A stretch of 32,000 nt of DNA from Nitrosopumilus maritimus SCM1 (GTDB lineage Archaea > Thermoproteota > Nitrososphaeria > Nitrososphaerales > Nitrosopumilaceae). The stretch is from contig NC_010085.1 of assembly GCF_000018465.1 (NCBI RefSeq), positions 1,320,001 through 1,352,000 on the forward strand, given 5' to 3'. Below, in pieces: positions 7,840 through 25,205 of the stretch. The position numbers and the translations under genes were made by a program. The notes beneath the pieces were generated by a model. The model saw nothing but the letters and a program-made list of their open reading frames with translations. It did no database searches and was not told where the DNA came from. The stretch's first letter is position 1. The number at the start of each line of letters is the position of its first letter.

Positions 7840-8232
7840 TCAATCATATTCCCCGCATACATTATCCTTGATTGTTTGAATAGTAGGTTCCTCAAAGTAG
7901 AATATTTCTACAGGTTCCTGAGAGGATATTATTCTCTCGCATTTGTAAGTAATTTGTTGACCATCCAAACTATCTGAGAATGTCAATGAAACATATCTTG
8001 CATTCTTGGAGTATGTAAAGCTGATTTCTTTTTCAAACAAAGTTCCAGACATGGAAGTTATTCCACTTAGAGGATAAGTCTCACGAAACTGCTGCACCAA
8101 TTCATTTGACTGATATTCATCAATCTGTTGGTGGGTAAGTGGACCCATAACAAACACGAGAAATCCAGTTATCACAAAAAATGACAAGACAACCCCAATT
8201 ACTCCAATGATTATCAAGGGTTTGGTTTTCAT
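7840..8232 (-). CDS. membrane-anchored hypothetical protein (130 aa), operon gene 4
   Basis: N-terminal anchor MKTKPLIIIGVIGVVLSFFVITGF is paralogous to the anchors of the two upstream genes. Its start overlaps the upstream stop (ATGA, 8229-8232). Confidence 0.6.
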   Translation of the reverse strand: MKTKPLIIIGVIGVVLSFFVITGFLVFVMGPLTHQQIDEYQSNELVQQFRETYPLSGITSMSGTLFEKEISFTYSKNARYVSLTFSDSLDGQQITYKCERIISSQEPVEIFYFEEPTIQTIKDNVCGEYD

Positions 8233-9227
8233 TTTCTATTCAATGTACAGTGATCAGTGTCAATCCAGTGAGTGTTGTTTCTGAATTTTATGTTTGGTTT
8301 TACATTAAGGTAATCATTGTCATTACACAATTTGTCTATCACTGGAACATACTCATCTAGATTGTCATGAATTTTAGTATTAATTTCTGCTCTATCAAAC
8401 AGGTAAAACACATCATCGTTATGATTTGTTTGATATGCCCATTCCTCAAATGAAAATGCACATCCACTCTTTATCATGTTGAGATCATATGGTACGCCTG
8501 CACCAGCAGGTGCTGGTTCACATATACCTCTTGGCGTACCATCCTCATTGTACCTTTGCATGCCACAAGGATCACGAATTGATTGGTAATATTCAAACAA
8601 AGTATCAAAGAGTTCTGCACAATAAGGATAGTTGTTTAGGAGATTTTTATCAGAAATTAATGTCAAATCAGGATACTTTAACTCCCATTTACAATACTGC
8701 ATATCATAGTTGTGAGTAGAGTTTTCTATGATTAGATCTGGCAGTTTTTCCTTGTGTATTGTTTCATCACAATTTGCAATATACTCTTTAGACTTTACAT
8801 CTACATCATCATTTGGTCTAAAGTTAAAACCATCAATACTTATTTTTCCATACTCTACAATAATTGCAACATCATCAGGATATTTTTTTGTAAATTCTTT
8901 GATTATTGGGATCAATTCTTTATTTTCAATCACAGCCTCAATTTCCTTGGTTTGGTGATTCAGATTTACTGCATACGAACTTGGTGGCAAATCCTCATGC
9001 AATTGTCTGACTTTTTTCCTAAGATCAAGTTCTATACCCTCAAGTTTTGCTTTTAATTCTGGTTCAATGTACGAACGTTCTCCGGGCTTTGGTTCATTCT
9101 CTATTCTCTGTCTTTCATACTCTAATTGTTCCAAATAATTTTCATATCTATCAAGTGCAGCAAATGTAACAAATGGAATTGTAGTCATCATAATTACTCC
9201 AATTATTATTAAAAATCTAGTTTTCAT
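8229..9227 (-). CDS. membrane-anchored/secreted Cys-rich hypothetical protein (332 aa), operon gene 3
   Basis: N-terminus MKTRFLIIIGVIMMTTIPFVTFA. It contains many Cys (…CDETIH…YCKWE…PYCAELF…CGMQ…GICEP…GCAF…LCNDN…HCTL). The upstream stop abuts its start (TAAATG at 9225-9230). Confidence 0.6.
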   Translation of the reverse strand: MKTRFLIIIGVIMMTTIPFVTFAALDRYENYLEQLEYERQRIENEPKPGERSYIEPELKAKLEGIELDLRKKVRQLHEDLPPSSYAVNLNHQTKEIEAVIENKELIPIIKEFTKKYPDDVAIIVEYGKISIDGFNFRPNDDVDVKSKEYIANCDETIHKEKLPDLIIENSTHNYDMQYCKWELKYPDLTLISDKNLLNNYPYCAELFDTLFEYYQSIRDPCGMQRYNEDGTPRGICEPAPAGAGVPYDLNMIKSGCAFSFEEWAYQTNHNDDVFYLFDRAEINTKIHDNLDEYVPVIDKLCNDNDYLNVKPNIKFRNNTHWIDTDHCTLNRK

Positions 9228-9983
9228 TTAATCCTCAAGTATTTTGAATATTTGACCGTCAGGTCCTATTATTTTATTATCCTGAATTAGTGGGACTGGA
9301 TCAGCCCATTCTTCAACGTAAACCTGATTGTAAAATCCCCCATGTTGCCAAGTGCAAGTGGTTGTTTTGAGTTTAGTAGTTCCATTACTCATACCCTTAT
9401 CACCAATTTTGTTTTCGGGATCTAGACAATCTTGAATAATTTTCTCTAGTTGATCACTCATCCACCATTGTTTTTTATTCCATTCACATTTTTCATAATC
9501 AAACATCCATAATCCTCCTTCATTCTCAGGTCTTGGTTCAGGTTTACATTCAGGCTCAGGTTCAACTTGAGTATTTTCAATTATGTCTAGAGGGAAACTG
9601 CCATAGTTATTTTGGATAACATCTACATCTGTACATCTATCTAATGCTATAGAGTATCCATATTGTTGAATTTCAGAAGTAAATGCGGGTTTTATTGTCT
9701 TCAAATCATCACAAGTAAATTCTAGAAAATCATGATAATGATCAATGTATTGAATTTCATCAGAGGATAAGAAACCTTTTTCACTGCAATATACTAATTC
9801 TGGCAGATATTTTTCTTGAAACACTTGAATATGCATTCTTTGCAGGTGTGCTGTTTCAAACAATTCTTGGCAATGAATCATTCTGTCCTGAATTATGAAG
9901 TAAGGAGTAATGTATGGAGACAATGAAATTATTAAAGCAATTGCAACAATAACAGAAATTATTATCAAAAGTCGAGTTTTCAT
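9228..9983 (-). CDS. membrane-anchored/secreted Cys-rich hypothetical protein (251 aa), operon gene 2
   Basis: N-terminus MKTRLLIIISVIVAIALIISL. It contains a P/E-rich linker EPEPECKPEPRPE. Its start overlaps the upstream stop (9980-9983). Confidence 0.6.
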   Translation of the reverse strand: MKTRLLIIISVIVAIALIISLSPYITPYFIIQDRMIHCQELFETAHLQRMHIQVFQEKYLPELVYCSEKGFLSSDEIQYIDHYHDFLEFTCDDLKTIKPAFTSEIQQYGYSIALDRCTDVDVIQNNYGSFPLDIIENTQVEPEPECKPEPRPENEGGLWMFDYEKCEWNKKQWWMSDQLEKIIQDCLDPENKIGDKGMSNGTTKLKTTTCTWQHGGFYNQVYVEEWADPVPLIQDNKIIGPDGQIFKILED

Positions 9984-11845
9984 TTTTTATCATCAACAGG
10001 TATTATTGAAAATCCATCACTAGAACCCTTAAGAATTGCGGTAATTTTTTCTTGTTTCAAATCAAAAGTTACAGTGACAAAGAGATATTTTTCTTCAACA
10101 TTGAATTTCAGTCCAACATGTTGATTTAGTGGTGGATTTTTTCTGTCAACTGAAAACGAACAACATTCAACATCATATGTATAGCCATCAAGTATTGATG
10201 AGACTTTGTTATTTTTGAGTACTTCAGATATCACAAAATCACGAGCGTCATCAGATAGATGATCCATACTATTTTCTCCAGGAACAGTTCTCAATTCTTC
10301 AATCATGTTTTGCCTTGCTTCCAAGTCATCAGGAGTAAGTTCTTCATAGTGATGTCTTGTAGGATCCTCATCTAGTACAGTAAAATCAAATTCTATTGGA
10401 GGAGACAAGGCAGTAGGATTTTCAATGCTCTGCCACACAAAGAATACAACCCTGTAGTCTCCTGCAACATTTGGAATCCACGAGGTAGCTGGGCTAAAAG
10501 AGGACAGAGGGTTTAGGGTTCCATCAATCCAAGACAATGCTTGAGTTTTTTTGTCACTGTCAATAATTTGTGCAATCCAGACAAATCGTTGTTCACGGTC
10601 TTGTTGATTTGCAATATCAGAGGTAAGTAGCACCTGCTCTCCAACTACAGGATAAACAATGGTGTTGTGTTTCAGATCAGATATTCTTGGAGCACTTACT
10701 GGTGCACGCTCCAATGGAGGGCCAGTAGAGCCCAATAGTGTAGTTGCAGTCAGAAAATTTTTCGAATCAATTGATTGTTGAGGATCATACAGTGCAGTCA
10801 TTGTATCTCCTTGATTTCCATACAGAATATTGGGTCCAGAACGTTTGTCACTAAATGCAAATGTACGCTCAAAGACTCCTGAATCTTTACTTGTTTCATA
10901 AAGATCAATTGTTATTCCTTCAAGGGAGCTATCAGAGAGGATTTTGGCTTTAACAGTGTCAATGCTGTTTGCAAACTTGTTTTGCTCATGATCAGTTACA
11001 ATAATTTTAGCAGAGCTTGTACCATTTTTTGTACTGTAATTTGCCTGACTCCACTCTATATTTTTAGCATCTAGTTGTTCAAATGGAAATGGATGCAACT
11101 CTACAGATACAGCTAAATCATCATTGACAGAATAGGGTTTTGGAAGTGTATGGTCATCATACTGTACATAGATAACATCATCAGGTAGTGCATACAAACT
11201 ACGTCCACTTGAATCATCTTGTGAAGTAGAGAAATAGGCTACAAAAGTTCCAGGACTGTCATGTAGTTCTTTTGCATCAATAACTAGTCCTGCTTTATCA
11301 GAATCAGAAAATACCTGAATAGAAAGTGTATCCAGAGTATCAGGATTAAGATTCATGTCAGGATCATTGACTGTTATGAGAAATGATTCTCCATATCCAT
11401 TAAACATTCTAGTATAATCCATAGTACCGACATTCCAGTTAATTTTTACAGATTTTTTTATCTCATCACCATCTGCAAATCTTACTAGAATTGTAAATTC
11501 ATCATCTCTGCTGCTCTCAAGAAATCCATTGTTAGGTCCAGTTCCCGTTGTGCGAGGATTTGTGTCATACTTTCCATCGCCATTTACATCATGCAAAAAT
11601 CCAGTCAAGATTATCTCTCCAGTGTACAATCCGTTTCCAGCCTTTGCTAGCTTGTAGTTTCTTATCTCATGATCTTCAGTATAGACTCTAACTGATGCAC
11701 CATCTGAATCAACTCCATGCTCTGTGATTCTAATGTTGATTTTATCAGTCCACGTGTATGGGGATTTGTCAAGAGAGATAGCAGCAAAAGCAGGAGAGAC
11801 AGTAATTATGATAATACTAAAAATTACAACCAAGAAAAATTTCAT
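9980..11845 (-). CDS. large secreted protein (621 aa) with repeated beta-rich modules, operon gene 1
   Basis: Signal peptide MKFFLVVIFSIIIITVSPAFA|A. Three divergent modules end in small-G-aromatic motifs (AGNGLYTGEI, HDSPGTFVAYF, SKDSGVFERTF) reminiscent of archaeal surface-protein repeats. No enzymatic motif seen. Confidence 0.6.
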   Translation of the reverse strand: MKFFLVVIFSIIIITVSPAFAAISLDKSPYTWTDKINIRITEHGVDSDGASVRVYTEDHEIRNYKLAKAGNGLYTGEIILTGFLHDVNGDGKYDTNPRTTGTGPNNGFLESSRDDEFTILVRFADGDEIKKSVKINWNVGTMDYTRMFNGYGESFLITVNDPDMNLNPDTLDTLSIQVFSDSDKAGLVIDAKELHDSPGTFVAYFSTSQDDSSGRSLYALPDDVIYVQYDDHTLPKPYSVNDDLAVSVELHPFPFEQLDAKNIEWSQANYSTKNGTSSAKIIVTDHEQNKFANSIDTVKAKILSDSSLEGITIDLYETSKDSGVFERTFAFSDKRSGPNILYGNQGDTMTALYDPQQSIDSKNFLTATTLLGSTGPPLERAPVSAPRISDLKHNTIVYPVVGEQVLLTSDIANQQDREQRFVWIAQIIDSDKKTQALSWIDGTLNPLSSFSPATSWIPNVAGDYRVVFFVWQSIENPTALSPPIEFDFTVLDEDPTRHHYEELTPDDLEARQNMIEELRTVPGENSMDHLSDDARDFVISEVLKNNKVSSILDGYTYDVECCSFSVDRKNPPLNQHVGLKFNVEEKYLFVTVTFDLKQEKITAILKGSSDGFSIIPVDDKK

Positions 11846-14546: not shown

Positions 14547-15326
14547 ATGAATACAAAGTTACTTCGCAATTTAGGAATAGCAGCTGTAGTTGTAATTGTC
14601 ACAATATTTGCAGTTGGGTCAATAGAACAGCAAGAACAAAAACTTGATTCTGTAGAAAATAAAATAGAAGTAGAAAGTGTTCCTGTAGAAAATGAAATTG
14701 AAGTAAAAAATGAACCTGTAGAAAATAAAATAGTAGAAAGTGTTCCTGTAGAAAAGCAAATAGTAGTAAAATCCACAGAATGTTCAGGAGATGCTTTGTG
14801 TTTTTCTGGTAAAATTACGCAGATAATTGATGGAGACACTGTTAAAGTCGATGGAAAGTCTATACGATTTGCACTAGTTGATGCTCCTGAATTAAAATAC
14901 GATGGCGGACAAGCAAAACAATTTCTCGAACAAGTTTGTCCAGTTGGATCTCAAGTTATAGTTGATCAGGATGACGATCAACTTTCAGACAAGTATGGCA
15001 GAATGTTAGGAGTGATTTACTGTAATGGTATGAATCTAAATCAAGAAATACTTGATTCAGGTATTGGAGATCTTTATGAAGCATTTTGTGATCAAAGTGA
15101 ATTTGCTACTCATTATTGGGCAACAAAACATGGATGTGGTGATTCAGAAGATGAAATAACAACTCAACAAATTCAAGACTGTGATTCATCTTATCCTGAC
15201 TTTTGCATTCCATCTTCACCACCTGATTTAGATTGTGGCGATATCTCTCAGAAAGATTTCACAGTATTGCAACCGGATCCACATAGATTTGATGGGGATA
15301 AGGATGGCATTGGATGTGAATCCTGA
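14547..15326 (+). CDS. membrane-anchored thermonuclease (SNase-like) with C-terminal Excalibur Ca-binding domain
   Basis: Contains a TM anchor (LGIAAVVVIVTIFAVG) and an acidic VE-repeat linker. The SNase core is GKITQIIDGDTVKVDGKSIRFALVDAPE...YGRMLGVIY..G.NLNQEILDSG, and the Excalibur motif is DPHRFDGDKDGIGCE. I prefer ATG at 14547 over the track TTG at 14538. Confidence 0.75.
   Translation: MNTKLLRNLGIAAVVVIVTIFAVGSIEQQEQKLDSVENKIEVESVPVENEIEVKNEPVENKIVESVPVEKQIVVKSTECSGDALCFSGKITQIIDGDTVKVDGKSIRFALVDAPELKYDGGQAKQFLEQVCPVGSQVIVDQDDDQLSDKYGRMLGVIYCNGMNLNQEILDSGIGDLYEAFCDQSEFATHYWATKHGCGDSEDEITTQQIQDCDSSYPDFCIPSSPPDLDCGDISQKDFTVLQPDPHRFDGDKDGIGCES
14652..14768 (+). repeat. in-frame imperfect tandem repeat encoding VENKIEVESVP / VENEIEVKNEP / VENKIVESVP / VEKQIVV
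   Basis: GTAGAAAATAAAATAG..TAGAAAGTGTTCCT recurs at 14652 and 14718, with shorter GTAGAAAA units between. It lies entirely inside the nuclease CDS. Confidence 0.8.
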
Positions 15327-16644: not shown

Positions 16645-17190
16645 ATGGCACAGGTTTTAGAAAAAAAGGGAGGACCATACCCAAAAAATAAGAAAATTAA
16701 GCGACAAAATGAGGTATTTCGTTTACATTTTGATTTAGGTTATTCTGCAGTAAAAATTTCTGAAATGATGAATGTTAATCGTAACACCGTTAATGGGGAC
16801 ATCCATTATTGGTATGGAATTCTTTCAAAAGAATGGGAGAGTTATGATATTGAAGCATGGCATATGAAACAGGTTCACAGATTAGAGTCTCAGAGAACCA
16901 GATTGTTTCAAGAGTTGGAAAAGACTACAGAAACCACAGTAAAGTTATCTATTGAAAGAATGATTTTGGATATTGATATCAAAATGACAAACTTTGTTTC
17001 AAAATCAGTGTATACTCAAGATTGGTTGAGAGATAGATCAGTAGCTTGGATCAATAAATGGGCAAAAGAGAACAATTCAAAGTATAGATTACTTGATGCA
17101 AATGCAGCTTGGTATACTAGTGAAGAGATTACTGAAAAGGTTCGTAAATTAATTCATGATGGTAAGATTGAGAAACGTGGAAAGATTTGA
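16645..17190 (+). CDS. hypothetical protein with putative N-terminal helix-turn-helix
   Basis: 181 aa. RQNEVFRLHFDLGYSAVKISEMMNVNRNTVNGDIHYW looks like a three-helix HTH (resolvase/terminase-small-subunit style). The remainder is helical and unassigned. Confidence 0.45.
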   Translation: MAQVLEKKGGPYPKNKKIKRQNEVFRLHFDLGYSAVKISEMMNVNRNTVNGDIHYWYGILSKEWESYDIEAWHMKQVHRLESQRTRLFQELEKTTETTVKLSIERMILDIDIKMTNFVSKSVYTQDWLRDRSVAWINKWAKENNSKYRLLDANAAWYTSEEITEKVRKLIHDGKIEKRGKI

Positions 17191-17218: not shown

Positions 17219-17626
17219 TCAGATGGGATAGTGAGGCATAAGATCCCTTGCAAGAAACTTTTTGATGTCGCCACCTTTTTCGTTCTGATAACCTACAACA
17301 CATTCTGAACCTCCAAGTTCAAAAATCCAGTCCATGCAGCTACCACAAGGTGTGAATTGTGTCCTTTGTGCCACCACAAGAATCGCCGTTAACTTTGTGC
17401 AGCCGCTTGATACCAAAGATGATATTGCTGAAACCTCTGCATGTATGTCGTGTGAACGGAATTTGTGTTCTATGTTGCATCCGGAAAAAATTTTCCCTTC
17501 TCCGGAAACCACTGCTGCACCAACCTGCGTCTTTCCAAGAACTCGTGCATTGGAATGAGAGTTCCAAGCAATTTCAGACATCTGATTCCAAATAGATTCT
17601 TCGACCAAGACACTCAACTTTTCCAT
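17219..17626 (-). CDS. cdd: cytidine/deoxycytidylate deaminase family protein (small CDA-like)
   Basis: Zinc-binding motifs HAEVSAI (H-A-E) and TPCGSCMDW (PCxxC) have the correct spacing in a 135-aa protein. Its ATG lies inside the last 13 nt of the upstream NACHT gene. Confidence 0.8.
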   Translation of the reverse strand: MEKLSVLVEESIWNQMSEIAWNSHSNARVLGKTQVGAAVVSGEGKIFSGCNIEHKFRSHDIHAEVSAISSLVSSGCTKLTAILVVAQRTQFTPCGSCMDWIFELGGSECVVGYQNEKGGDIKKFLARDLMPHYPI

Positions 17627-20079
17627 TCACCCTTTTTGTATTTTGATAATCGTTCTTCCCAATCTTCATCATGCACATGATCTGATTTTGATTCCTTTAC
17701 CTTTTCGAGCAAGGGAATCACAGACTCATCCCATTGCCCATATGCATTTCTGTAAAAGACTGTCTTTCCAATTTCATCAAGAATGTTTTTCCTTAATTTC
17801 GAAGCCATATTTCCTAATTTGTCTAGGATATCTTTACGCATATCCGCATCTTCAGTGATTGCAGCCATTTCCACCAATGCACGAGCAGCACCATATCGTA
17901 CCCAATGATAGGGGTCTGTTTCTAGAGCAATGAATAGTAGTTTTTTATTTTCCTCTGAGGGGCACTTTCCAAGTGGATGAATAATCCTCCATCTACGGGT
18001 GTTCTGATTTGGAACATCTGCATCAGAATAATCATACATGTCTCTTAGATCTTTTTGGTTTTCCTCACTTAGATTGCATTCACGTAAAACATTTGATGCA
18101 GTCCAACCAATCAAAGAATTGTCAGATTTTAACAACTTGAGAGTTTCATCATTGATTTCTGAATCACGTTTAATGGTAAACAATTGTTTCCATTCATCAA
18201 ACAAATCTGATTCAGATTTCATGACACTTATCATATCTATTAATTCTTTAAGATTATTTGCTTTAGTCAATTGTTCACCAAAGGTTTTCTCATAATCTCC
18301 CAAGTGATTTTTTGCAGATTCAGAAGTTTCATAACCATTATCAAATTGTTTTTGTGCAACCAATACTAACATTGCAGTAACTATATCTTCAGAATGATTG
18401 TTAATTCCTAACTTGGAATTTAATATGATGGATGCAATTGCAGCTTTCCAATTCCAATCATATACCTCCAACAAAAATCTGTCAGCAAGTTCTTTATTTT
18501 CGATCTGTTGCATTACCAGATGGATAGATTCTAGTGAACTGGACTCCAAAGTAGCTATGTCAAATTCATCTACATCCCAATTCTCTGGGTGTGATGCCAA
18601 ATATTCGGATACAAGAAAATCATGTAATAATTGATGACTAAATGTTGCATGGGTGTCACTTGTCGTAAATGCCGCACCTCCACCTAACAGTTTATCAAAT
18701 GTCTCTTGTCCTGTAATCTCTACAAAGTTTTTCAACTCAAATGATACCGAACCTTCTTGATATGCAAAAAATGACGCTTTTGCTAATTTCTTCATTTCCT
18801 CCTCATTCATCTTCAATCTCTCTTTGAAGAAATCATTTAGTACGGAAGATTCAGAAGTCATAGAAGCTGAACATCTCTCCATGGCAATATTGAGAAAGAA
18901 TGGTCTGGATAACAAACTCATGCTTACATCATTCAACTCATATTGTTCTTTACCAATAGTAATGTCTAGATTTTTTCTTATCTCTTCTTCACTCAAAGGA
19001 TTCAATGTAATTTTGTTCCATCCTGTAAGTGCACCACGTACATCCATCCTGTCCGTTAGCAGAACATATGTGTGAGGAGAAGTTTGTCTTACATATTCTC
19101 CTACATCTTGAATTATTTTTTCTGTTAATTCACCAAAATCGCCTGATTTGAATTCATTTATGCCATCAATCACTATTATGACATCTCCCTCAAAACTTTT
19201 GAGACGTTCCACTGTAATTTCCACACTAGACATTTTCAGCAGTTTGTCTATGCGTGACTCAGCACTTTCATCTCTCGCATCCTCCAATTCTTTAAAAAAT
19301 TCTGTTTCACTTCCATTAATGGGGATAAAAACAGGAAGAACCTTTTCTTTAACAATAGATTTGAGAAACTCTGTAACTGTGTTACTCTTTCCGCTTCCTG
19401 CAGCGCCTTTTAGGATTACTTTTCTTTTTGATTTTATGATTGAATGTAATTCAGTTATTGGAAATTTTTCTCCGTTTTCATCAGAAAATGTAATCCCAAA
19501 CTTATGTTCTGGTGGGGGTTTAGCTTCAAGTTTTGTAGTAAGTTCTTTAAGATATGATAAAAGGTTTAGATTTCCTTGCTGAAATTGTTGATCTTGGTCT
19601 CCAGAATCTTTTGTAACAGTTTGTTCATGAACTTCTTTAAGTATTCCAATTGCTTTATCCATTTTACTATCTAACTTTGTGGCAATATTCAGAATTTTTT
19701 GATTATATGCTGTCATAATTTTCTGAAAAGATGTTTCAGCTCCTTCCATCTCAATTTTTTGTTTTATTTCTGTTAACAGTTTTTCTGAATCAAATTTGTA
19801 TTCTGTATCTTGAAATGCATTTTCTAGTCCTTTAAGCAGGTTCAGGAAGTCTTGAACAGATCCTTCAGATAATTTTTTGAAATTGTCTGAAAATTCTTGT
19901 TTTGACAAAACATCAATTAGTATATCTCTACTTTCTGGATATTTGGCGCCAAATTCATCAATAATTTCTGTACGATATTCATTCCAATTCCACTTGAATG
20001 ATTTTTGAGCAAACTTGAATATCATTTCTGCAAGGGATAGTCCTAATCCTATCTCAGAAGACATGTTTTCTTCATTCAT
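17614..20079 (-). CDS. STAND NTPase: unassigned N-terminal helical domain + NACHT-type P-loop + C-terminal HEAT-like repeats
   Basis: Walker A is VILKGAAGSGKSNTV and Walker B is DVIIVIDGINEF (the NACHT-style hhhhDGhxE). The C-terminus has DPYHWVRYGAARALVEMAA (PBS-lyase/HEAT-like). The first ~215 aa are helical with no motif I recognise. Confidence 0.75.
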   Translation of the reverse strand: MNEENMSSEIGLGLSLAEMIFKFAQKSFKWNWNEYRTEIIDEFGAKYPESRDILIDVLSKQEFSDNFKKLSEGSVQDFLNLLKGLENAFQDTEYKFDSEKLLTEIKQKIEMEGAETSFQKIMTAYNQKILNIATKLDSKMDKAIGILKEVHEQTVTKDSGDQDQQFQQGNLNLLSYLKELTTKLEAKPPPEHKFGITFSDENGEKFPITELHSIIKSKRKVILKGAAGSGKSNTVTEFLKSIVKEKVLPVFIPINGSETEFFKELEDARDESAESRIDKLLKMSSVEITVERLKSFEGDVIIVIDGINEFKSGDFGELTEKIIQDVGEYVRQTSPHTYVLLTDRMDVRGALTGWNKITLNPLSEEEIRKNLDITIGKEQYELNDVSMSLLSRPFFLNIAMERCSASMTSESSVLNDFFKERLKMNEEEMKKLAKASFFAYQEGSVSFELKNFVEITGQETFDKLLGGGAAFTTSDTHATFSHQLLHDFLVSEYLASHPENWDVDEFDIATLESSSLESIHLVMQQIENKELADRFLLEVYDWNWKAAIASIILNSKLGINNHSEDIVTAMLVLVAQKQFDNGYETSESAKNHLGDYEKTFGEQLTKANNLKELIDMISVMKSESDLFDEWKQLFTIKRDSEINDETLKLLKSDNSLIGWTASNVLRECNLSEENQKDLRDMYDYSDADVPNQNTRRWRIIHPLGKCPSEENKKLLFIALETDPYHWVRYGAARALVEMAAITEDADMRKDILDKLGNMASKLRKNILDEIGKTVFYRNAYGQWDESVIPLLEKVKESKSDHVHDEDWEERLSKYKKGEWKS

Positions 20080-20091
20080 AATCCTACAATA

Positions 20092-20126
20092 AAATCATTC
20101 ATACAATAATATTTCATGAATGATTT
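20092..20126. promoter_or_regulatory. perfect 11-bp inverted repeat just upstream of the NACHT gene start
   Basis: AAATCATTCAT (20092-20102) and ATGAATGATTT (20116-20126) are separated by 13 nt, 13-47 nt upstream of the ATG at 20079. The arm sequence ATGAATGA also forms the first codons of the gene. A second small palindrome ATATCT/AGATAT lies at about 20131-20149. Confidence 0.45.
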
Positions 20127-20204
20127 CCTGATATCTGAAATATAGATATGTACTCTATTAACAACACAAAATTCTCTCAAGATCTATCAGAAACTCCAAT
20201 CGTA

Positions 20205-21287
20205 TTATTTGAGATTTTTTCTTATTTCATGTGCTAATGATTCTGCCACCAAAGGAGGAACTGCATCTGCAATTTGCTGATATTGTGAATTATTTGTGCC
20301 AAAAAATCTGAATGAGTCTGGAAAACTCTGTATTCTAGCTGCCTCTCTTACAGATATTATTCTATTTTCTTTAGGATGTAACAACATAGCTCGTCTTGCA
20401 TGAACAATTGTAGGAGTTGTATGTTGATAAGATAAACGTCTATAGATATTACCATGAAGAGAATTTTTATTTTTGAATCTAGATTTTGTTTTTTTAGATA
20501 GTGTTTTCCATGAATCAAGTAAACTTCTTCCTTCGTTAATTTCAGAAATTGTATTGATTACATCTTCTCCGTGTTTCGTACACCAATGATTGTACAAGTT
20601 ATTGATGTTTCCTCCTAATTTTTTTCCATATGGGGAATTAAATTTTTTAGGATGTTTCATAATTTCGTTTCCAGATGTACCTTGTTTTATAGAAGGTAAT
20701 CCTGAAATGACATCAAAAAGATTATCGCATGAAACAGGAATTTTGATCAAATTCAAATTACATTCATGTCCATTCAAAAAACCTGTTACAAAGAGTCGTT
20801 TTCGTTTTTGTGGAAGTCCTGCTTTTTCACAATCAATCACAGATACGCTCAGAATGTATCCTAATTTTTTAAAATCATTGAGGAATTTTTTCCAACCTGG
20901 GAGATTTCTAAAATTGGTAACATTTTCAAATAAAAATGCCTGAGGTTTTAATTCAGATATTATTCTGAAATAATGATTTATAGCATTTGCAAAGGGATGA
21001 TTTTTGCCATTATTTTGTTTATTTGCATTTGAATAAGGTTGACAAGGAGGTCCTCCTATTACACAAAATCTCTCTTTTGATGTGATTTTTTTTAGTTCGT
21101 TTGATTTTATGTTTTTTATATCATCTACAATTAATTTAGTCTCCTTGAAATTTTTTGAATATGTTTCAGCAGCACTCTTATCAAATTCCACTGCTGCAAT
21201 GACTTTGAACCCTGCATTCTTAAATCCTAAACTTAATCCACCTGAACCTGCAAATAGATCGATAACGCCAATTTCTTCTTTCCTCAT
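20205..21287 (-). CDS. DNA (cytosine-5)-methyltransferase
   Basis: All conserved m5C MTase blocks are readable. They are I DLFAGSGGLSLGF, IV GGPPCQPYS, VI FLFENV, VIII QKRKRLF, IX SVREAARIQSFPDSFRF and X QIADAVPPLVAESLA. Confidence 0.93.
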   Translation of the reverse strand: MRKEEIGVIDLFAGSGGLSLGFKNAGFKVIAAVEFDKSAAETYSKNFKETKLIVDDIKNIKSNELKKITSKERFCVIGGPPCQPYSNANKQNNGKNHPFANAINHYFRIISELKPQAFLFENVTNFRNLPGWKKFLNDFKKLGYILSVSVIDCEKAGLPQKRKRLFVTGFLNGHECNLNLIKIPVSCDNLFDVISGLPSIKQGTSGNEIMKHPKKFNSPYGKKLGGNINNLYNHWCTKHGEDVINTISEINEGRSLLDSWKTLSKKTKSRFKNKNSLHGNIYRRLSYQHTTPTIVHARRAMLLHPKENRIISVREAARIQSFPDSFRFFGTNNSQYQQIADAVPPLVAESLAHEIRKNLK

Positions 21288-21363
21288 ATTTTTAATAAAT
21301 TAAATCTGGATAAAAATCAAGTCCTGCAAGATTTATGTCATACCATGTTATTTTCATAATTAC

Positions 21364-22236
21364 ATGGCCTTATTTTTTAATGACCCAAAATTCCATACAA
21401 TCTATGAAAAAATAATGGATCTCAATGAATTGGTTTGGGAGAATAAATTAGATCCCTTTATGATTGAACAATGGCTAGAAAACTTTGATACTAAATCTGA
21501 TAAATTAGAAATGTTGGAATTGTTATCTAAATTTACTTATTACAATGAAAAAGAAATTTCTTCTCTTCTCACGTCCTCTTTTGAACTCTTGAAAAGCTAT
21601 TTGAGTTTGATTCACCTAAATCAAAAAATTGAAATTAGTGATTTGAATGAATTTGTGAAAAACAACTGTTATTTCGTTGGGACATGGGAAAATCCCAGTA
21701 AAAGTGGAGTTCATCTTTTATATGATTTTAGAGTTTTAAACAAATTACCCCCCAGAATTTTTTGTAACACTGTAAAAGATGTTCCAAAAAATGCACCGTT
21801 TGTTATTTTTCTTGACGATATTGCTGGTAGTGGAAGACAGGCCAGCGACTTCTGGAATCTACGAGTAATAAAGGAAAGAAAACATCTAACAAATACGAAA
21901 TTTCTCTATTTGGTATTGGTTGGAAATGAAAAGGGTATTGAGTATATTGAGACAAAAACTAAGATCAAAGTTCTTCCAGTGGTAAAATTAGATGATAGAT
22001 ACAAATTATTTTCAAAATCATCTATTTATTTCCCTGACAAAAAAAAGAGGCAAAAAGTACAAAAAATTTGTGAAAAATATGGGAAGAGACTATATGCCAA
22101 TAACCCTCTAGGTTTTGCAAATTCTCAAATGTTAATAGGCTTCCATCATAATATACCTGATAATACGTTACCAATAATATGGGAAAATAAAAATAACTGG
22201 GATCCAATATTCCCACGTTTTGGAGCTGTGGTGTAA
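21364..22236 (+). CDS. phosphoribosyltransferase (PRTase)-fold-like protein, first gene of three-gene operon
   Basis: 290 aa. The hydrophobic-DD-small-GSG loop PFVIFLDDIAGSGRQASDFW resembles the PRPP-binding loop of type I PRTases (hhhhDD-x-x-T/S-G-x-T). The preceding YFVGTWENPSKSGVHLLYDF resembles the PRTase core. The N-terminal ~110 aa are helical and unassigned. Confidence 0.45.
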   Translation: MALFFNDPKFHTIYEKIMDLNELVWENKLDPFMIEQWLENFDTKSDKLEMLELLSKFTYYNEKEISSLLTSSFELLKSYLSLIHLNQKIEISDLNEFVKNNCYFVGTWENPSKSGVHLLYDFRVLNKLPPRIFCNTVKDVPKNAPFVIFLDDIAGSGRQASDFWNLRVIKERKHLTNTKFLYLVLVGNEKGIEYIETKTKIKVLPVVKLDDRYKLFSKSSIYFPDKKKRQKVQKICEKYGKRLYANNPLGFANSQMLIGFHHNIPDNTLPIIWENKNNWDPIFPRFGAVV

Positions 22237-22241
22237 AGAGC

Positions 22242-24224
22242 ATGCAAATTAGAAATCCCTTTGAAGAAGTAAATGCAAATAATCTAGATGATGATGAAAT
22301 CTTAGATTTTTGGATTAAACCTGAGGGTATTTTCAACAAACAGCTTGAGGGAATCAAATTAACTGGTCTCACTCCATTGTTTTTATTTGGTGGAAGGGGT
22401 ACTGGAAAAACTACCGTTTTAAAATACATGTCATTTGATCTACAACAAAAAGAATTTCTTAAAAAAAATACTGACATGAAAAATTTCTTAACAAAAAATA
22501 ATTTCATAGGAATTTATCATAGATTTGATGGTCCACAACTGGACGCATTTAATGCAGGACCAGATGATCGAAAATGTCTTGAAGCATTTCGATTTTTTAT
22601 TGAACTTGTACTATCACAAAATTTCCTTTGGATTGTTGAAAAACTTCTAGAAAACAAATCCATCACTTCAAAATTTAATGAAAAAACCCTATGTGCTAAT
22701 ATCTCTGAATTAATTTTTGGCAAAAAAATCACATCTTTGTCTACCATCTCAAAAATTAGGAAAAAATTAGGAACTATTCAGTATTCCTTAGAGAAAGCAC
22801 GAGATAAATCTGCAATAGATGGAAAAGAAATTGATATTAAAAATATAATTCCTAGAGGTAGACTAATTTTCGATCTACAAAATGAAATCACAAAAACTAT
22901 TCAAGAACTCAAAAACATAAAAATTCTTTATTTGTTTGATGAGTATGAAAATCTCACATATGATCAACAATTACTTTTCAATACTCTGATCAAACATAGG
23001 AAATTCAATGTAAGTTTCAAAATTGGTTCTCGTTTAAAGGGTGTGAAAACTTACGATACATTAACAACTGAGGAATATCTTAGAGAACCTGCTGATTATA
23101 GAAAAATAATCTTTGAAAATATTCTAAATGTCTCGTCATTAGAATACAAAAAAATTCTTATTAAAATTGCTGAAAAACGCTTACGTCACATTCCTGAATT
23201 TAAATCAAAGAATCTAACCGATATTAAAAAAATCCTGGGCTATAGCCTTTCACCTGAACAAGAAGCCAATAGGATTGTTAACTCTAGCAAAGACAAACGA
23301 AAACATTTCTACAAAATTGAAAAACACAAAAAAACTTCAATTAGTGAAAAAACAATATCTGACTTAAAATGTGAAGGAAGGCCATTAATTGAAAAACTGA
23401 ATATGATGTTATTAAATCGAAACTATCCAATATCTAAAATCAAACTAATGATGAACCATTTTGTTTCTAGAAACTCAAAATCAAGTTATCATAAACAATA
23501 CAAAAATCTCTATGACAAAAACAAAGTTGCTTTATTGTTTCAATTGATATCTGACTACAGACCTAGGGAGAAACAATATTCTGGATTTGATACTTATGTG
23601 AGTCTTTCTTCTGGTATCATAAGGACTTTCCTAGAATTATGTTTTCATGCATTTCATTTTGCAATATTTGCCGAACAAAAGAATTTGTTATCTGGTAAAC
23701 CAATATCTCACGAATTACAAAATGATGCTGCAAAATTAATGTCACAGAAATATTATGAAGAAATTGCAGTGATTCCTAAAGGCTATGGGGTGTTTGTTGC
23801 TAGATTAGTTGATAACATTGGTTCAATTTTACGTGGATTACATAAAGATCCTCTAATTTCTGAACCTGAACCCACATACTTTACAATTGAATATGAAAAT
23901 CTTGATTTGAAAACTAGAAGTGTTATTGACACTGCAGAACAATGGTCAATTTTACAACGAACTATTTCTATGAAGCCAAAAGCAAAATTACAAGCACATC
24001 TAACTGATTTTCATATTAATAGAATGTTCTGTCCAAAATATTCAATTTCATATCGTAGACGAGGTAGAACATTAATCACTCCATCTGAAATACACATTCT
24101 AACATTTGGGAATGAACAAGAACAAAAAACTATTCGTGAATTAGTTAGTAGAGAAAAAGAAGTTAGAAAGGCTAGGAAAGTCAGAGACCAAGGACAACCC
24201 AAAATTATTGATTTTTTAGATTAA
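22242..24224 (+). CDS. P-loop ATPase (AAA/ORC-Cdc6-like N-terminal domain) with large unassigned C-terminal region
   Basis: Walker A is LFLFGGRGTGKTTVLKYM and Walker B is KILYLFDEYENL. It starts 5 nt after the upstream stop. About 400 C-terminal residues carry no motif I recognise. Confidence 0.65.
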   Translation: MQIRNPFEEVNANNLDDDEILDFWIKPEGIFNKQLEGIKLTGLTPLFLFGGRGTGKTTVLKYMSFDLQQKEFLKKNTDMKNFLTKNNFIGIYHRFDGPQLDAFNAGPDDRKCLEAFRFFIELVLSQNFLWIVEKLLENKSITSKFNEKTLCANISELIFGKKITSLSTISKIRKKLGTIQYSLEKARDKSAIDGKEIDIKNIIPRGRLIFDLQNEITKTIQELKNIKILYLFDEYENLTYDQQLLFNTLIKHRKFNVSFKIGSRLKGVKTYDTLTTEEYLREPADYRKIIFENILNVSSLEYKKILIKIAEKRLRHIPEFKSKNLTDIKKILGYSLSPEQEANRIVNSSKDKRKHFYKIEKHKKTSISEKTISDLKCEGRPLIEKLNMMLLNRNYPISKIKLMMNHFVSRNSKSSYHKQYKNLYDKNKVALLFQLISDYRPREKQYSGFDTYVSLSSGIIRTFLELCFHAFHFAIFAEQKNLLSGKPISHELQNDAAKLMSQKYYEEIAVIPKGYGVFVARLVDNIGSILRGLHKDPLISEPEPTYFTIEYENLDLKTRSVIDTAEQWSILQRTISMKPKAKLQAHLTDFHINRMFCPKYSISYRRRGRTLITPSEIHILTFGNEQEQKTIRELVSREKEVRKARKVRDQGQPKIIDFLD

Positions 24225-24225
24225 A

Positions 24226-25155
24226 ATGAAAAATATCCAAGAACTTGATTCATTAATCCAAGTAAAACCGTTAGAATATGATTATTTTATTTATACAAAA
24301 AATTCAGAAAAGAGATCATCAAACGTACTAAATATTTTTAAAAAATCAAAAATCAAAATTAAAAATTTAATTGAATTACAGTTTGAAGACACTCAAACAC
24401 CTAAAATCAGAACAATTGGATCAAGATATGTGATCACTTGTCCTTACAGACATGTTCTTATGGGCATTAAATCTATTTTTGACTTATTACACAATCTACA
24501 TTTCAAAATTAATGATAAGGTGTGTATTGATATTACTGGTACTGATGTACCATATTTTTTCCATCTTCTAAAAACACTCAAATTTAAAAAAATGTTATCA
24601 AAAATTGATTTAGTATACACAGAACCTGAAACATATAAAAAAACTTCAAATAAATTTATTTTTTCCGAGGGAATTAGAAATGTAAAACAATTTCCTGCAT
24701 ATACTGGAAGAACAAACCCAAATGGGAAAAAAATACTTTTGATTTTAATAGGTTTTGAAGGACACCGTTCATACAAAGTCTTAGACTCTATTGAGCCCGA
24801 CAAAACATTGGCGCTAAATGGATTTCCAAGTTATTCGTTAGAATTCAAAGATACTAGTATTCTTGAAAACAAAGAACTGTTAACTAGTCCATCATGTAAA
24901 AATAATACTCTTTTAGCATCAGCACACAATCCTTTTGAAACATTAAAAATTCTCAATAATCTTCCGTCTAGCCACAAGAAACATAATTTAATCATGGCTC
25001 CTATAGGAACAAAACCTATGTCTTTAGGGGCTTGTCTTTATTGTCTCAAAAATGAATCGGTTCGCGTAGTTTTTCCTTATCCCAATTCATATATTTCCAA
25101 AAATGCACCTGCAGAAAAAATTGGTAAAACTTGGATCTATCAATTAGTTCTTTGA
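24226..25155 (+). CDS. hypothetical Rossmann-like protein with DITGT and IGTKPMSLGA motifs (possible CARF/DxTGGTK-like ligand-binding fold)
   Basis: 309 aa, starting 1 nt after the upstream stop. Beta-strand-then-glycine patterns (KVCIDITGTDVPYFFHLL; KILLILIGFEGHRS; HNLIMAPIGTKPMSLGACLY) suggest Rossmann-like units. GTKxMS resembles the DxTGGTKxMS motif of some CARF-family proteins. Weak, by-eye only. Confidence 0.35.
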   Translation: MKNIQELDSLIQVKPLEYDYFIYTKNSEKRSSNVLNIFKKSKIKIKNLIELQFEDTQTPKIRTIGSRYVITCPYRHVLMGIKSIFDLLHNLHFKINDKVCIDITGTDVPYFFHLLKTLKFKKMLSKIDLVYTEPETYKKTSNKFIFSEGIRNVKQFPAYTGRTNPNGKKILLILIGFEGHRSYKVLDSIEPDKTLALNGFPSYSLEFKDTSILENKELLTSPSCKNNTLLASAHNPFETLKILNNLPSSHKKHNLIMAPIGTKPMSLGACLYCLKNESVRVVFPYPNSYISKNAPAEKIGKTWIYQLVL

Positions 25156-25205
25156 GTCCGTAACTACAAGTCTCTTTGATGTAACAATGGTTCAAGTTTC
25201 AAGAA

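Follow-up and report, generated by a model that had tools for sequence, protein, structure and literature searches.

The window analysed here is a stretch of 32,000 nucleotides (nt) from the archaeon Nitrosopumilus maritimus SCM1 (contig NC_010085.1, positions 1,320,001 to 1,352,000). At positions 20205 to 25155, it carries a DNA methyltransferase (MTase) gene that is divergently paired with three tightly packed genes, referred to as A, B and C; exact-sequence look-ups identified the source as SCM1, the MTase gene as Nmar_1473 and C as Nmar_1476, with A and B being Nmar_1474 and Nmar_1475 by position. As detailed below, the locus represents a cassette of four genes that is found widely and consists of an effector gene, B, C and an adjacent DNA MTase gene. 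The locus comprises the following features:

20205..21287, minus strand: MTase gene Nmar_1473 (ABX13369, exact match), 360 amino acids (aa), C5-cytosine DNA methyltransferase, modification slot
21288..21363, no strand: divergent intergenic region, 76 nt, AT-rich, presumed bidirectional promoter
21364..22236, plus strand: gene A (by position Nmar_1474), 290 aa, phosphoribosyltransferase (PRTase)-CE family, predicted effector
22242..24224, plus strand: gene B (by position Nmar_1475), 660 aa, ORC-CDC6-like AAA+ ATPase, predicted DNA-sensing switch
24226..25155, plus strand: gene C, Nmar_1476 (ABX13372), 309 aa, CARF6 family, predicted nucleotide-ligand sensor
19500..25200, no strand: low-GC segment that carries the cassette, delimited by the GC profile

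The MTase gene and A are 76 nt apart, followed by gaps of 5 nt between A and B and merely 1 nt between B and C. The original prediction, a reading of the letters alone, was correct in all four open reading frames (ORFs) and their spacing, and the motifs that it quoted, i.e. VIFLDDIAGSGRQA in A, GGRGTGKTT and LYLFDEYE in B as well as DITGT and IGTKPMSLGA in C, are all found in the translations. Its description of the region as an AT-rich island likewise holds, with a GC content of 0.28-0.30 over approximately 19.5-25 kb compared to 0.35-0.39 in both flanks; from base composition, this segment was probably acquired horizontally. In a search for relatives of N. maritimus without the island, by which its borders could be drawn, all contigs retrieved belonged to this one strain. 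Downstream of C lies a valyl-tRNA synthetase gene, while the 821-aa neighbour is Nmar_1472.

Protein A is a member of the PRTase-CE family PF24390 (E 3.8e-64, 217.4 bits versus a cutoff of 27), whose profile is covered from end to end (positions 1-253 of 253), and shows near full-length homology to the PRTase_III-A profile for retrons in PADLOC (E 4.1e-50). Its AlphaFold2 model, built from 39 homologues, reached a predicted local distance difference test score (pLDDT) of 93 and retrieved the type I PRTases HGXPRT, OPRT and UPRT in Foldseek (probability 1.0, E 6e-4), which bears out the PRTase-like fold that had been proposed; a sequence-profile search against PDB chains gave nothing useful. 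The motif VIFLDDIAGSGRQA had been put forward as resembling the loop that binds phosphoribosyl pyrophosphate (PRPP). In this loop, all 39 homologues share D151 and D152, while G155 and G157 are nearly invariant. Judged by its model, A has the PRTase fold and has kept its loop for PRPP or ribose 5-phosphate intact, so that catalysis is predicted.

Protein B belongs to the ORC-CDC6-like family PF24389 (E 7.4e-120, 401.8 bits versus a cutoff of 27). The match spans residues 5-609, and the statement that about 400 residues of this protein could not be assigned is thereby overturned. Across 22 diverse homologues, the Walker A (GxxGxGKT) and Walker B (DExE) residues G50, G53, G55, K56, T57, D233, E234 and E236 are invariant. 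The family is large: a word index gave 180 homologues, and an exhaustive profile search of 50%-identity representatives yielded 3363 at E<=1e-3, of which 1052 were found at E<=1e-30.

Protein C, which has no match in Pfam, is recognised by the PADLOC CARF6 profile PDLC01922 (E 1.3e-151) and by 11 further CARF profiles, 10 of them again CARF6. In its AlphaFold2 model (pLDDT 89.9), two Rossmann-like halves are apparent, and Foldseek aligns approximately 150 residues with the CARF domains of Csm6, Cam1, Card1 and Can2 (E 6e-5 to 1e-3), as anticipated by the cautious suggestion that C could be CARF-like. Sequence-profile searches against PDB chains gave nothing useful, and a viral fold search merely returned generic Rossmann folds. 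Conservation extends to the GTKPM loop, in which T262 and K263 hardly vary; we take this motif to be of the type seen in CARF domains, and its position assigns the CARF domain to the C-terminal half of C. Comparison of one half with the other finds a weak similarity between DITGxxxPYFF and PLGTKPMSLGA (E 0.06 in hhalign), which makes a tandem duplication within C plausible on sequence grounds. No effector domain is seen in the model or among the fold matches. Taken together, the model points to a CARF-fold protein that is predicted to sense a nucleotide ligand. In agreement with the original prediction, Pfam, PADLOC and NCBIfam find no nuclease or helicase family in A, B or C, and no cyclase family either. 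In one old read set of the same strain (L099, SRR000223 assembly, also SCM1), B and C are fragmented, most likely as a result of sequencing or assembly error and not of real pseudogenisation.

To place the locus among its relatives, 87 non-redundant loci from archaea, bacteria and plasmids were assembled, with neighbourhoods taken from six homologues (23-76% identity) and from 80 metagenome loci of an alignment-based scan (a single-sequence scan of genome contigs gave 2 loci only), and scored with hidden Markov models of the triad, complemented by jackhmmer seeds for accessory genes. The slot before B is filled in 71 of the 74 loci with enough upstream sequence, by A in 64 and by another effector in 7, and a C homologue directly follows B in 64 of 65. 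A, B and C thus occur together almost universally in related loci, and the three-gene operon that had been read from the spacing is real, as its gene order is conserved. This order recurs in approximately 90 independent loci and hence is not a product of chance. The layout in N. maritimus matches the four-slot cassette of the 87 loci, i.e. effector, B and C with an adjacent DNA MTase. The nearest homologous cassette (L003, with a B protein 76% identical) lies in a genomic context unrelated to that of the N. maritimus locus.

The fourth component, the MTase, is a Dcm-type enzyme (PF00145, E 2.7e-67; TIGR00675 dcm, 184 bits) with M.HaeIII as its best relative in the PDB (E 1e-34). Its sequence carries the FxGxG, PCQ and ENV motifs, and its assignment as a 5-methylcytosine (m5C) MTase with the catalytic motifs is therefore sound. 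The notion of an 'orphan' methylase, in contrast, proved wrong: among the 43 related loci with at least 2.4 kb of sequence on both sides, 39 have a DNA methylase gene within 3.5 kb of the cassette. The DNA MTase is hence a near-obligate fourth component, and in the relatives it accompanies the A-B-C triad and not a conventional restriction endonuclease. The class of the methylase varies by lineage (m5C, N6A or N4/N6), while the slot is retained. In the archaeal and candidate-phyla clade, m5C enzymes of PF00145 are encoded either divergently, as in N. maritimus, L003-L006 and L012, or co-directionally in the order MTase-A-B-C, as in Methanosarcina mazei (L008), L007 and L015-L018. In 44 bacterial loci, an N6 MTase (PF02384) gene is found immediately 3' of C, often overlapping its stop codon, and PF01555 MTases occur in L001, L078 and L091. 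In general, co-directional MTase genes often share overlapping stop and start codons with the cassette. The MTase is the occupant of an interchangeable modification slot. Even between relatives, the sequences indicate that the MTase gene itself is swapped out, with an identity to the N. maritimus copy of 74% in L003 and of just 34% in L005, although B of L005 is 52% identical. Replacement of this kind is typical of specificity swapping in restriction-modification (R-M) systems. Moreover, m5C variants have companions, namely Vsr in L005 and L007 and an HhH-GPD glycosylase in L008, as expected for T:G mismatch repair beside m5C MTases. The M. mazei locus shows a further set of genes directly upstream of and co-directional with MTase-A-B-C (L008, 1-5930), which encode a 1140-aa DEAD/Helicase_C protein, a 610-aa protein without Pfam match and a PLD-family nuclease. 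These may constitute a second system in one superoperon.

One might still suspect that an orphan methylase had merely come to lie beside a housekeeping operon for pyrimidine or purine salvage, given that the fold of A is that of salvage PRTases and that a cytidine deaminase gene is located 3.5 kb away. Yet, MTase linkage in 39 of 43 loci extends across domains of life, the family of A is recognised by retron effector profiles and by no NCBIfam salvage enzyme model, and the distribution is patchy and on mobile elements. We regard this possibility as negligible; the recurrent gene order and the MTase linkage effectively refute a chance juxtaposition.

Sister loci differ in the gene that precedes B. 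L078, L079, L083 and L091 lack gene A and encode a B protein with a TIR domain at its N-terminus. A calcineurin-like phosphoesterase (Metallophos) is fused to the same terminus in L081 and encoded by a separate gene in the position of A in L085 and L087, whereas A itself can be fused to B, as seen in P0115 and P0200. All effector-swapped variants retain C, and all but two retain an MTase, the exceptions being L085, which has ThyX only, and L087, in which none was detected. The replacement of the PRTase by TIR or phosphoesterase modules marks A as a swappable effector slot and B plus C as the core. In other systems, TIR effectors act by depletion of NAD+.

The same components could conceivably be read with reversed roles, as a nucleotide second-messenger system in which the occupant of slot A makes or processes a signal, C is the receptor and B the executor. 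TIR domains indeed make cyclic ADP-ribose-type signals in Thoeris, PRTases of Ter systems have been predicted to synthesise a signal (PMC7824862), and C combines a ligand-binding CARF fold with the lack of an effector domain. However, B and C have no recognisable killing domain in Pfam, PADLOC or NCBIfam, and STAND/NLR proteins classically combine effector and NTPase in just this way, with a TIR domain N-terminal to the NTPase. In addition, a metallophosphoesterase would be an unlikely signal synthase, and the homologous retron PRTase is treated as an effector (PMC7736814). We therefore consider the reversed arrangement unlikely, and keep to a reading in which slot A holds the effector.

Several known systems share parts of this architecture. 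Bacteriophage exclusion (BREX) of type 1, with the methylase PglX, the ORC/Cdc6-like ATPase BrxC and the phosphatase-superfamily protein PglZ, is like the cassette nuclease-free and methylation-linked with an obligate methylase, and both combine an AAA+ ATPase of the ORC/Cdc6 clade with a phosphoester- or nucleotide-handling enzyme. Unlike BREX, the cassette has only four genes and is devoid of PglZ, BrxA, BrxB and BrxL; conversely, the CARF-fold protein and the effector slot for PRTase, TIR or Metallophos are features of the cassette and not of BREX. PADLOC gives no match to B, and thus neither its BrxC nor its Avs model fits, and the section of the window examined contains no PglZ-like gene. 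Type III-A retrons encode a PRTase-like effector homologous to A, whose chemistry is described as unknown (PMC7736814). In contrast to these retrons, the partners of A are the AAA+ ATPase, the CARF protein and the methylase, no reverse transcriptase is found among the cassette neighbours, and an Rfam search of the whole window matched no RNA family. Retron Ec73 offers no further link of the PRTase type, as it is classed as NDT-type (II-A1) by Mestre et al.

The CARF fold of approximately half of C is shared with the type III CRISPR sensors Csm6, Can2, Card1 and Cam1. Unlike these, C has no fused effector and harbours two Rossmann-like halves in one chain; the cassette encodes neither a Cas10 nor a CD-NTase synthase, as would be expected for type III CRISPR or cyclic oligonucleotide-based systems (CBASS), and the window contains no CRISPR-like array. 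STAND/NLR-like systems (Avs, TIR-NTPase) have the effector-then-NTPase layout and interchangeable N-terminal effectors in common with the TIR-B and Metallophos-B fusions, whereas B lacks the hypervariable C-terminal repeat sensor of Avs, and the obligate methylase and CARF partners are found in the cassette only. ShosTA and PsyrTA likewise join a PRTase-fold toxin with a Rossmann-like partner, in this case a DprA-like or SLOG Rossmann antitoxin, while the cassette adds the ATPase and the methylase. As a precedent for toxic PRTases, ShosT acts by disturbing purine metabolism (PMC11961720). The ShosT and PsyrT models of PADLOC do not recognise A, which matches the retron models only. Finally, classical type II R-M systems resemble the cassette in their m5C methylase with all catalytic motifs, in the Vsr or glycosylase companions of the relatives and in methylase swapping; yet, Pfam, PADLOC and NCBIfam find no endonuclease family in A, B, C or the 821-aa neighbour. 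No known metabolic pathway or named system claims A, B and C.

The cassette family is carried on mobile elements. It is present in 157 plasmid records, of which 129 are from Klebsiella and 137 are predicted to be conjugative. The Klebsiella cassettes ride conjugative IncFII plasmids of clinical isolates, beside replication genes, as exemplified by K. pneumoniae pKPHS2 (L095, NC_016846.1 31850-36926, KPHS_p200550-200520), in which the order N6 MTase-A-B-C adjoins repA. The pKPHS2-type cassette DNA is also found in E. coli transconjugants (H18-H21), and A, B and C of the plasmids are labelled 'hypothetical protein' by PGAP/RefSeq. A Pseudomonas copy adjoins two integrases and an Acinetobacter copy tRNA-Val. 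Neighbours in other loci include a type I R-M system, a helicase-PLD pair and an HD/dGTPase-like gene. A cassette-bearing record labelled Acinetobacter phage MD-2021a (L096) contains the chromosomal genes efp, cstA and tdcB and looks like a bacterial contig, and thus is no evidence of phage carriage; PHROGs holds no family for A, B or C.

This distribution would also suit a selfish module by which mobile elements enforce addiction or exclusion, with the methylase as antidote and the triad as toxin that together stabilise plasmids and islands, defence against viruses not being the primary role. The abundance on conjugative Klebsiella IncFII plasmids beside replication genes, the integrase-flanked island of Pseudomonas and the low-GC insertion in N. 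maritimus are in line with such a role. On the other hand, the cassette is chromosomal too in many free-living archaea and bacteria, and addiction is compatible with defence, as classical R-M systems do both. This explanation appears quite improbable.

The best reading of the locus is a methylation-gated, nuclease-free defence system with a nucleotide-targeting effector, which is supported by the conserved gene order with an MTase, the exchange of MTases and effectors, the CARF fold of C, mobile carriage and defence neighbours. From these features, we infer a defence function and self-marking by methylation, and we lean, by a modest measure, towards the view that the locus is a conserved four-slot module that behaves like R-M or BREX-type innate immunity without a nuclease. 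In a possible sequence of events, the MTase would methylate the host DNA and may also supply site recognition. B would then serve as an ATP-dependent switch that assembles on, or is triggered by, DNA without the mark. Subsequently, B could license A, which might attack the pool of nucleotides, of PRPP or of NAD-type molecules, or else modify a target by phosphoribosylation, and thus block replication of the invader or arrest growth. C, via the CARF domain in its C-terminal half, may bind a nucleotide-derived ligand and thereby gate or tune B and A. Gene order, co-occurrence, folds and families, conserved catalytic motifs, the exchange of effector and MTase and the mobile carriage are observed, and the direction of signalling and the chemistry of the effector in this scheme are inferred.

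A more specific version, in which B reads the missing methyl mark and releases a swappable nucleotide-targeting effector under tandem-CARF control without any cutting of DNA, is put forward as a tentative and somewhat doubtful proposal. If true, this epigenetically gated immunity would amount to an R-M system with an abortive-infection or metabolic weapon as its 'restriction' arm, and the recurrent ThyX, dUTPase and DCD genes described below would tie the cassette to the thymidylate pool.

Several observations weigh against methylation-gated defence as outlined here. With respect to B, the profile search against PDB chains gave no relative, no DNA-binding domain is evidenced (structures were predicted for A and C), and PADLOC holds no model for the protein. 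Its C-terminal half equals the ATPase core in conservation and has no hypervariable specificity region, so that target specificity would more plausibly come from the methylase. Furthermore, the cassette contains no enzyme that could make a cyclic-oligonucleotide ligand for C. Lastly, thymidylate-pathway genes occur in operonic positions in 24 of the 87 loci, irrespective of the type of effector or MTase. ThyX accounts for 13 of these (L014-L016, L020, L023-L025, L037, L057, L060, L079, L083 and L085), with the RHRx7S signature intact in 12 of the 13 copies, a dimeric dUTPase for 6 (L011, L040, L045, L048, L055 and L073) and a DCD/dUTPase for 5 (L010, L013, L066, L067 and L071). ThyX is located near the cassette in three of the four loci without an MTase, either directly upstream of A (L014 and L025) or just after C (L085). 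The model leaves unexplained this linkage, which hints at a tie to pyrimidine-nucleotide metabolism; the cassette may read or perturb the pyrimidine pool.

The same genes could alternatively belong to a DNA hypermodification or epigenetic module of the Dpd or Dnd kind, in which A, B and C would cooperate with the methylase to introduce or process a modified base. Beyond ThyX, dUTPase and DCD genes at many loci, the linked DNA-modifying enzyme in 39 of 43 loci and ComFC-type PRTase domains in DNA-uptake contexts (PMC5512222) would fit such a pathway. However, a single modification chemistry is hard to reconcile with the exchange of the PRTase for a TIR domain or a phosphoesterase, and the class of the MTase is itself interchangeable. 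Hypermodification is therefore judged very unlikely, and a nuclease-free defence system gated by methylation is retained as the best account of the locus.

The claim that the system is undescribed stands only in part. It does not apply to the families, since PF24390, PF24389 and CARF6 exist; it holds for the combination, which is not modelled as a system in PADLOC v2. None of A, B and C is covered by an NCBIfam model. The cassette is undescribed in work on CoCoNuTs, BREX diversity, modularity networks, CARF/WYL (2014), archaeal dark matter, integrated mobile genetic elements (iMGEs) of Thaumarchaeota and conflict systems (eLife). No literature that names or tests it was found in a search that left CARF-classification and nucleotide-centric surveys outside its scope, and an earlier computational description is likely. 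PF24389 and PF24390 are consecutive Pfam accessions, and one CARF6 profile gives C a score of 502 bits. Hence, the A-B-C association has very probably been noticed computationally before, and close relatives of C, possibly C itself, were probably part of an earlier CARF census. The N. maritimus locus is a typical new member of a kind that is catalogued yet functionally uncharacterised, and there is a substantial chance that this kind works by a new mechanism.

Should the cassette prove to be a working immune system, it would unite methylation-based discrimination of self and non-self with abortive or metabolic TIR/PRTase effectors under the control of a nucleotide sensor. As the B family is common (>1000 clusters), occurs in archaea and bacteria and is carried by conjugative Klebsiella plasmids, it could shape the host range of plasmids and phages in clinical bacteria. 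The cassette would also offer a tractable setting for the chemistry of the PRTase-CE family, which is shared with type III-A retrons. In N. maritimus, a model ammonia-oxidising archaeon, the locus is likely antiviral.

Adjoining the cassette, the 821-aa protein Nmar_1472 is a STAND/NACHT-like NTPase with HEAT repeats, for which Pfam, PADLOC and NCBIfam show no nuclease family. Its gene overlaps by 13 nt with a downstream gene of the cytidine-deaminase fold (PF00383, E 1.9e-15), and the two genes together occupy 17219-20079 on the minus strand. PADLOC matches neither of the two, which could form an NTPase-plus-deaminase defence pair. The variable segment is bordered on its left by the gene of a 181-aa protein (16645-17190, plus strand) with a weak sigma-70 region-4 or YlxM-type helix-turn-helix, which could be a regulator or a mobile-element remnant. 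Further upstream, four packed co-directional ORFs of 130, 332, 251 and 621 aa without Pfam match (7840-11845, minus strand) form an uncharacterised operon amid housekeeping genes, and an imperfect tandem repeat with a 33-nt (or 63-nt) unit in 3.7 copies (14650-14771) lies within an ORF that bears a staphylococcal-nuclease (SNase) domain.

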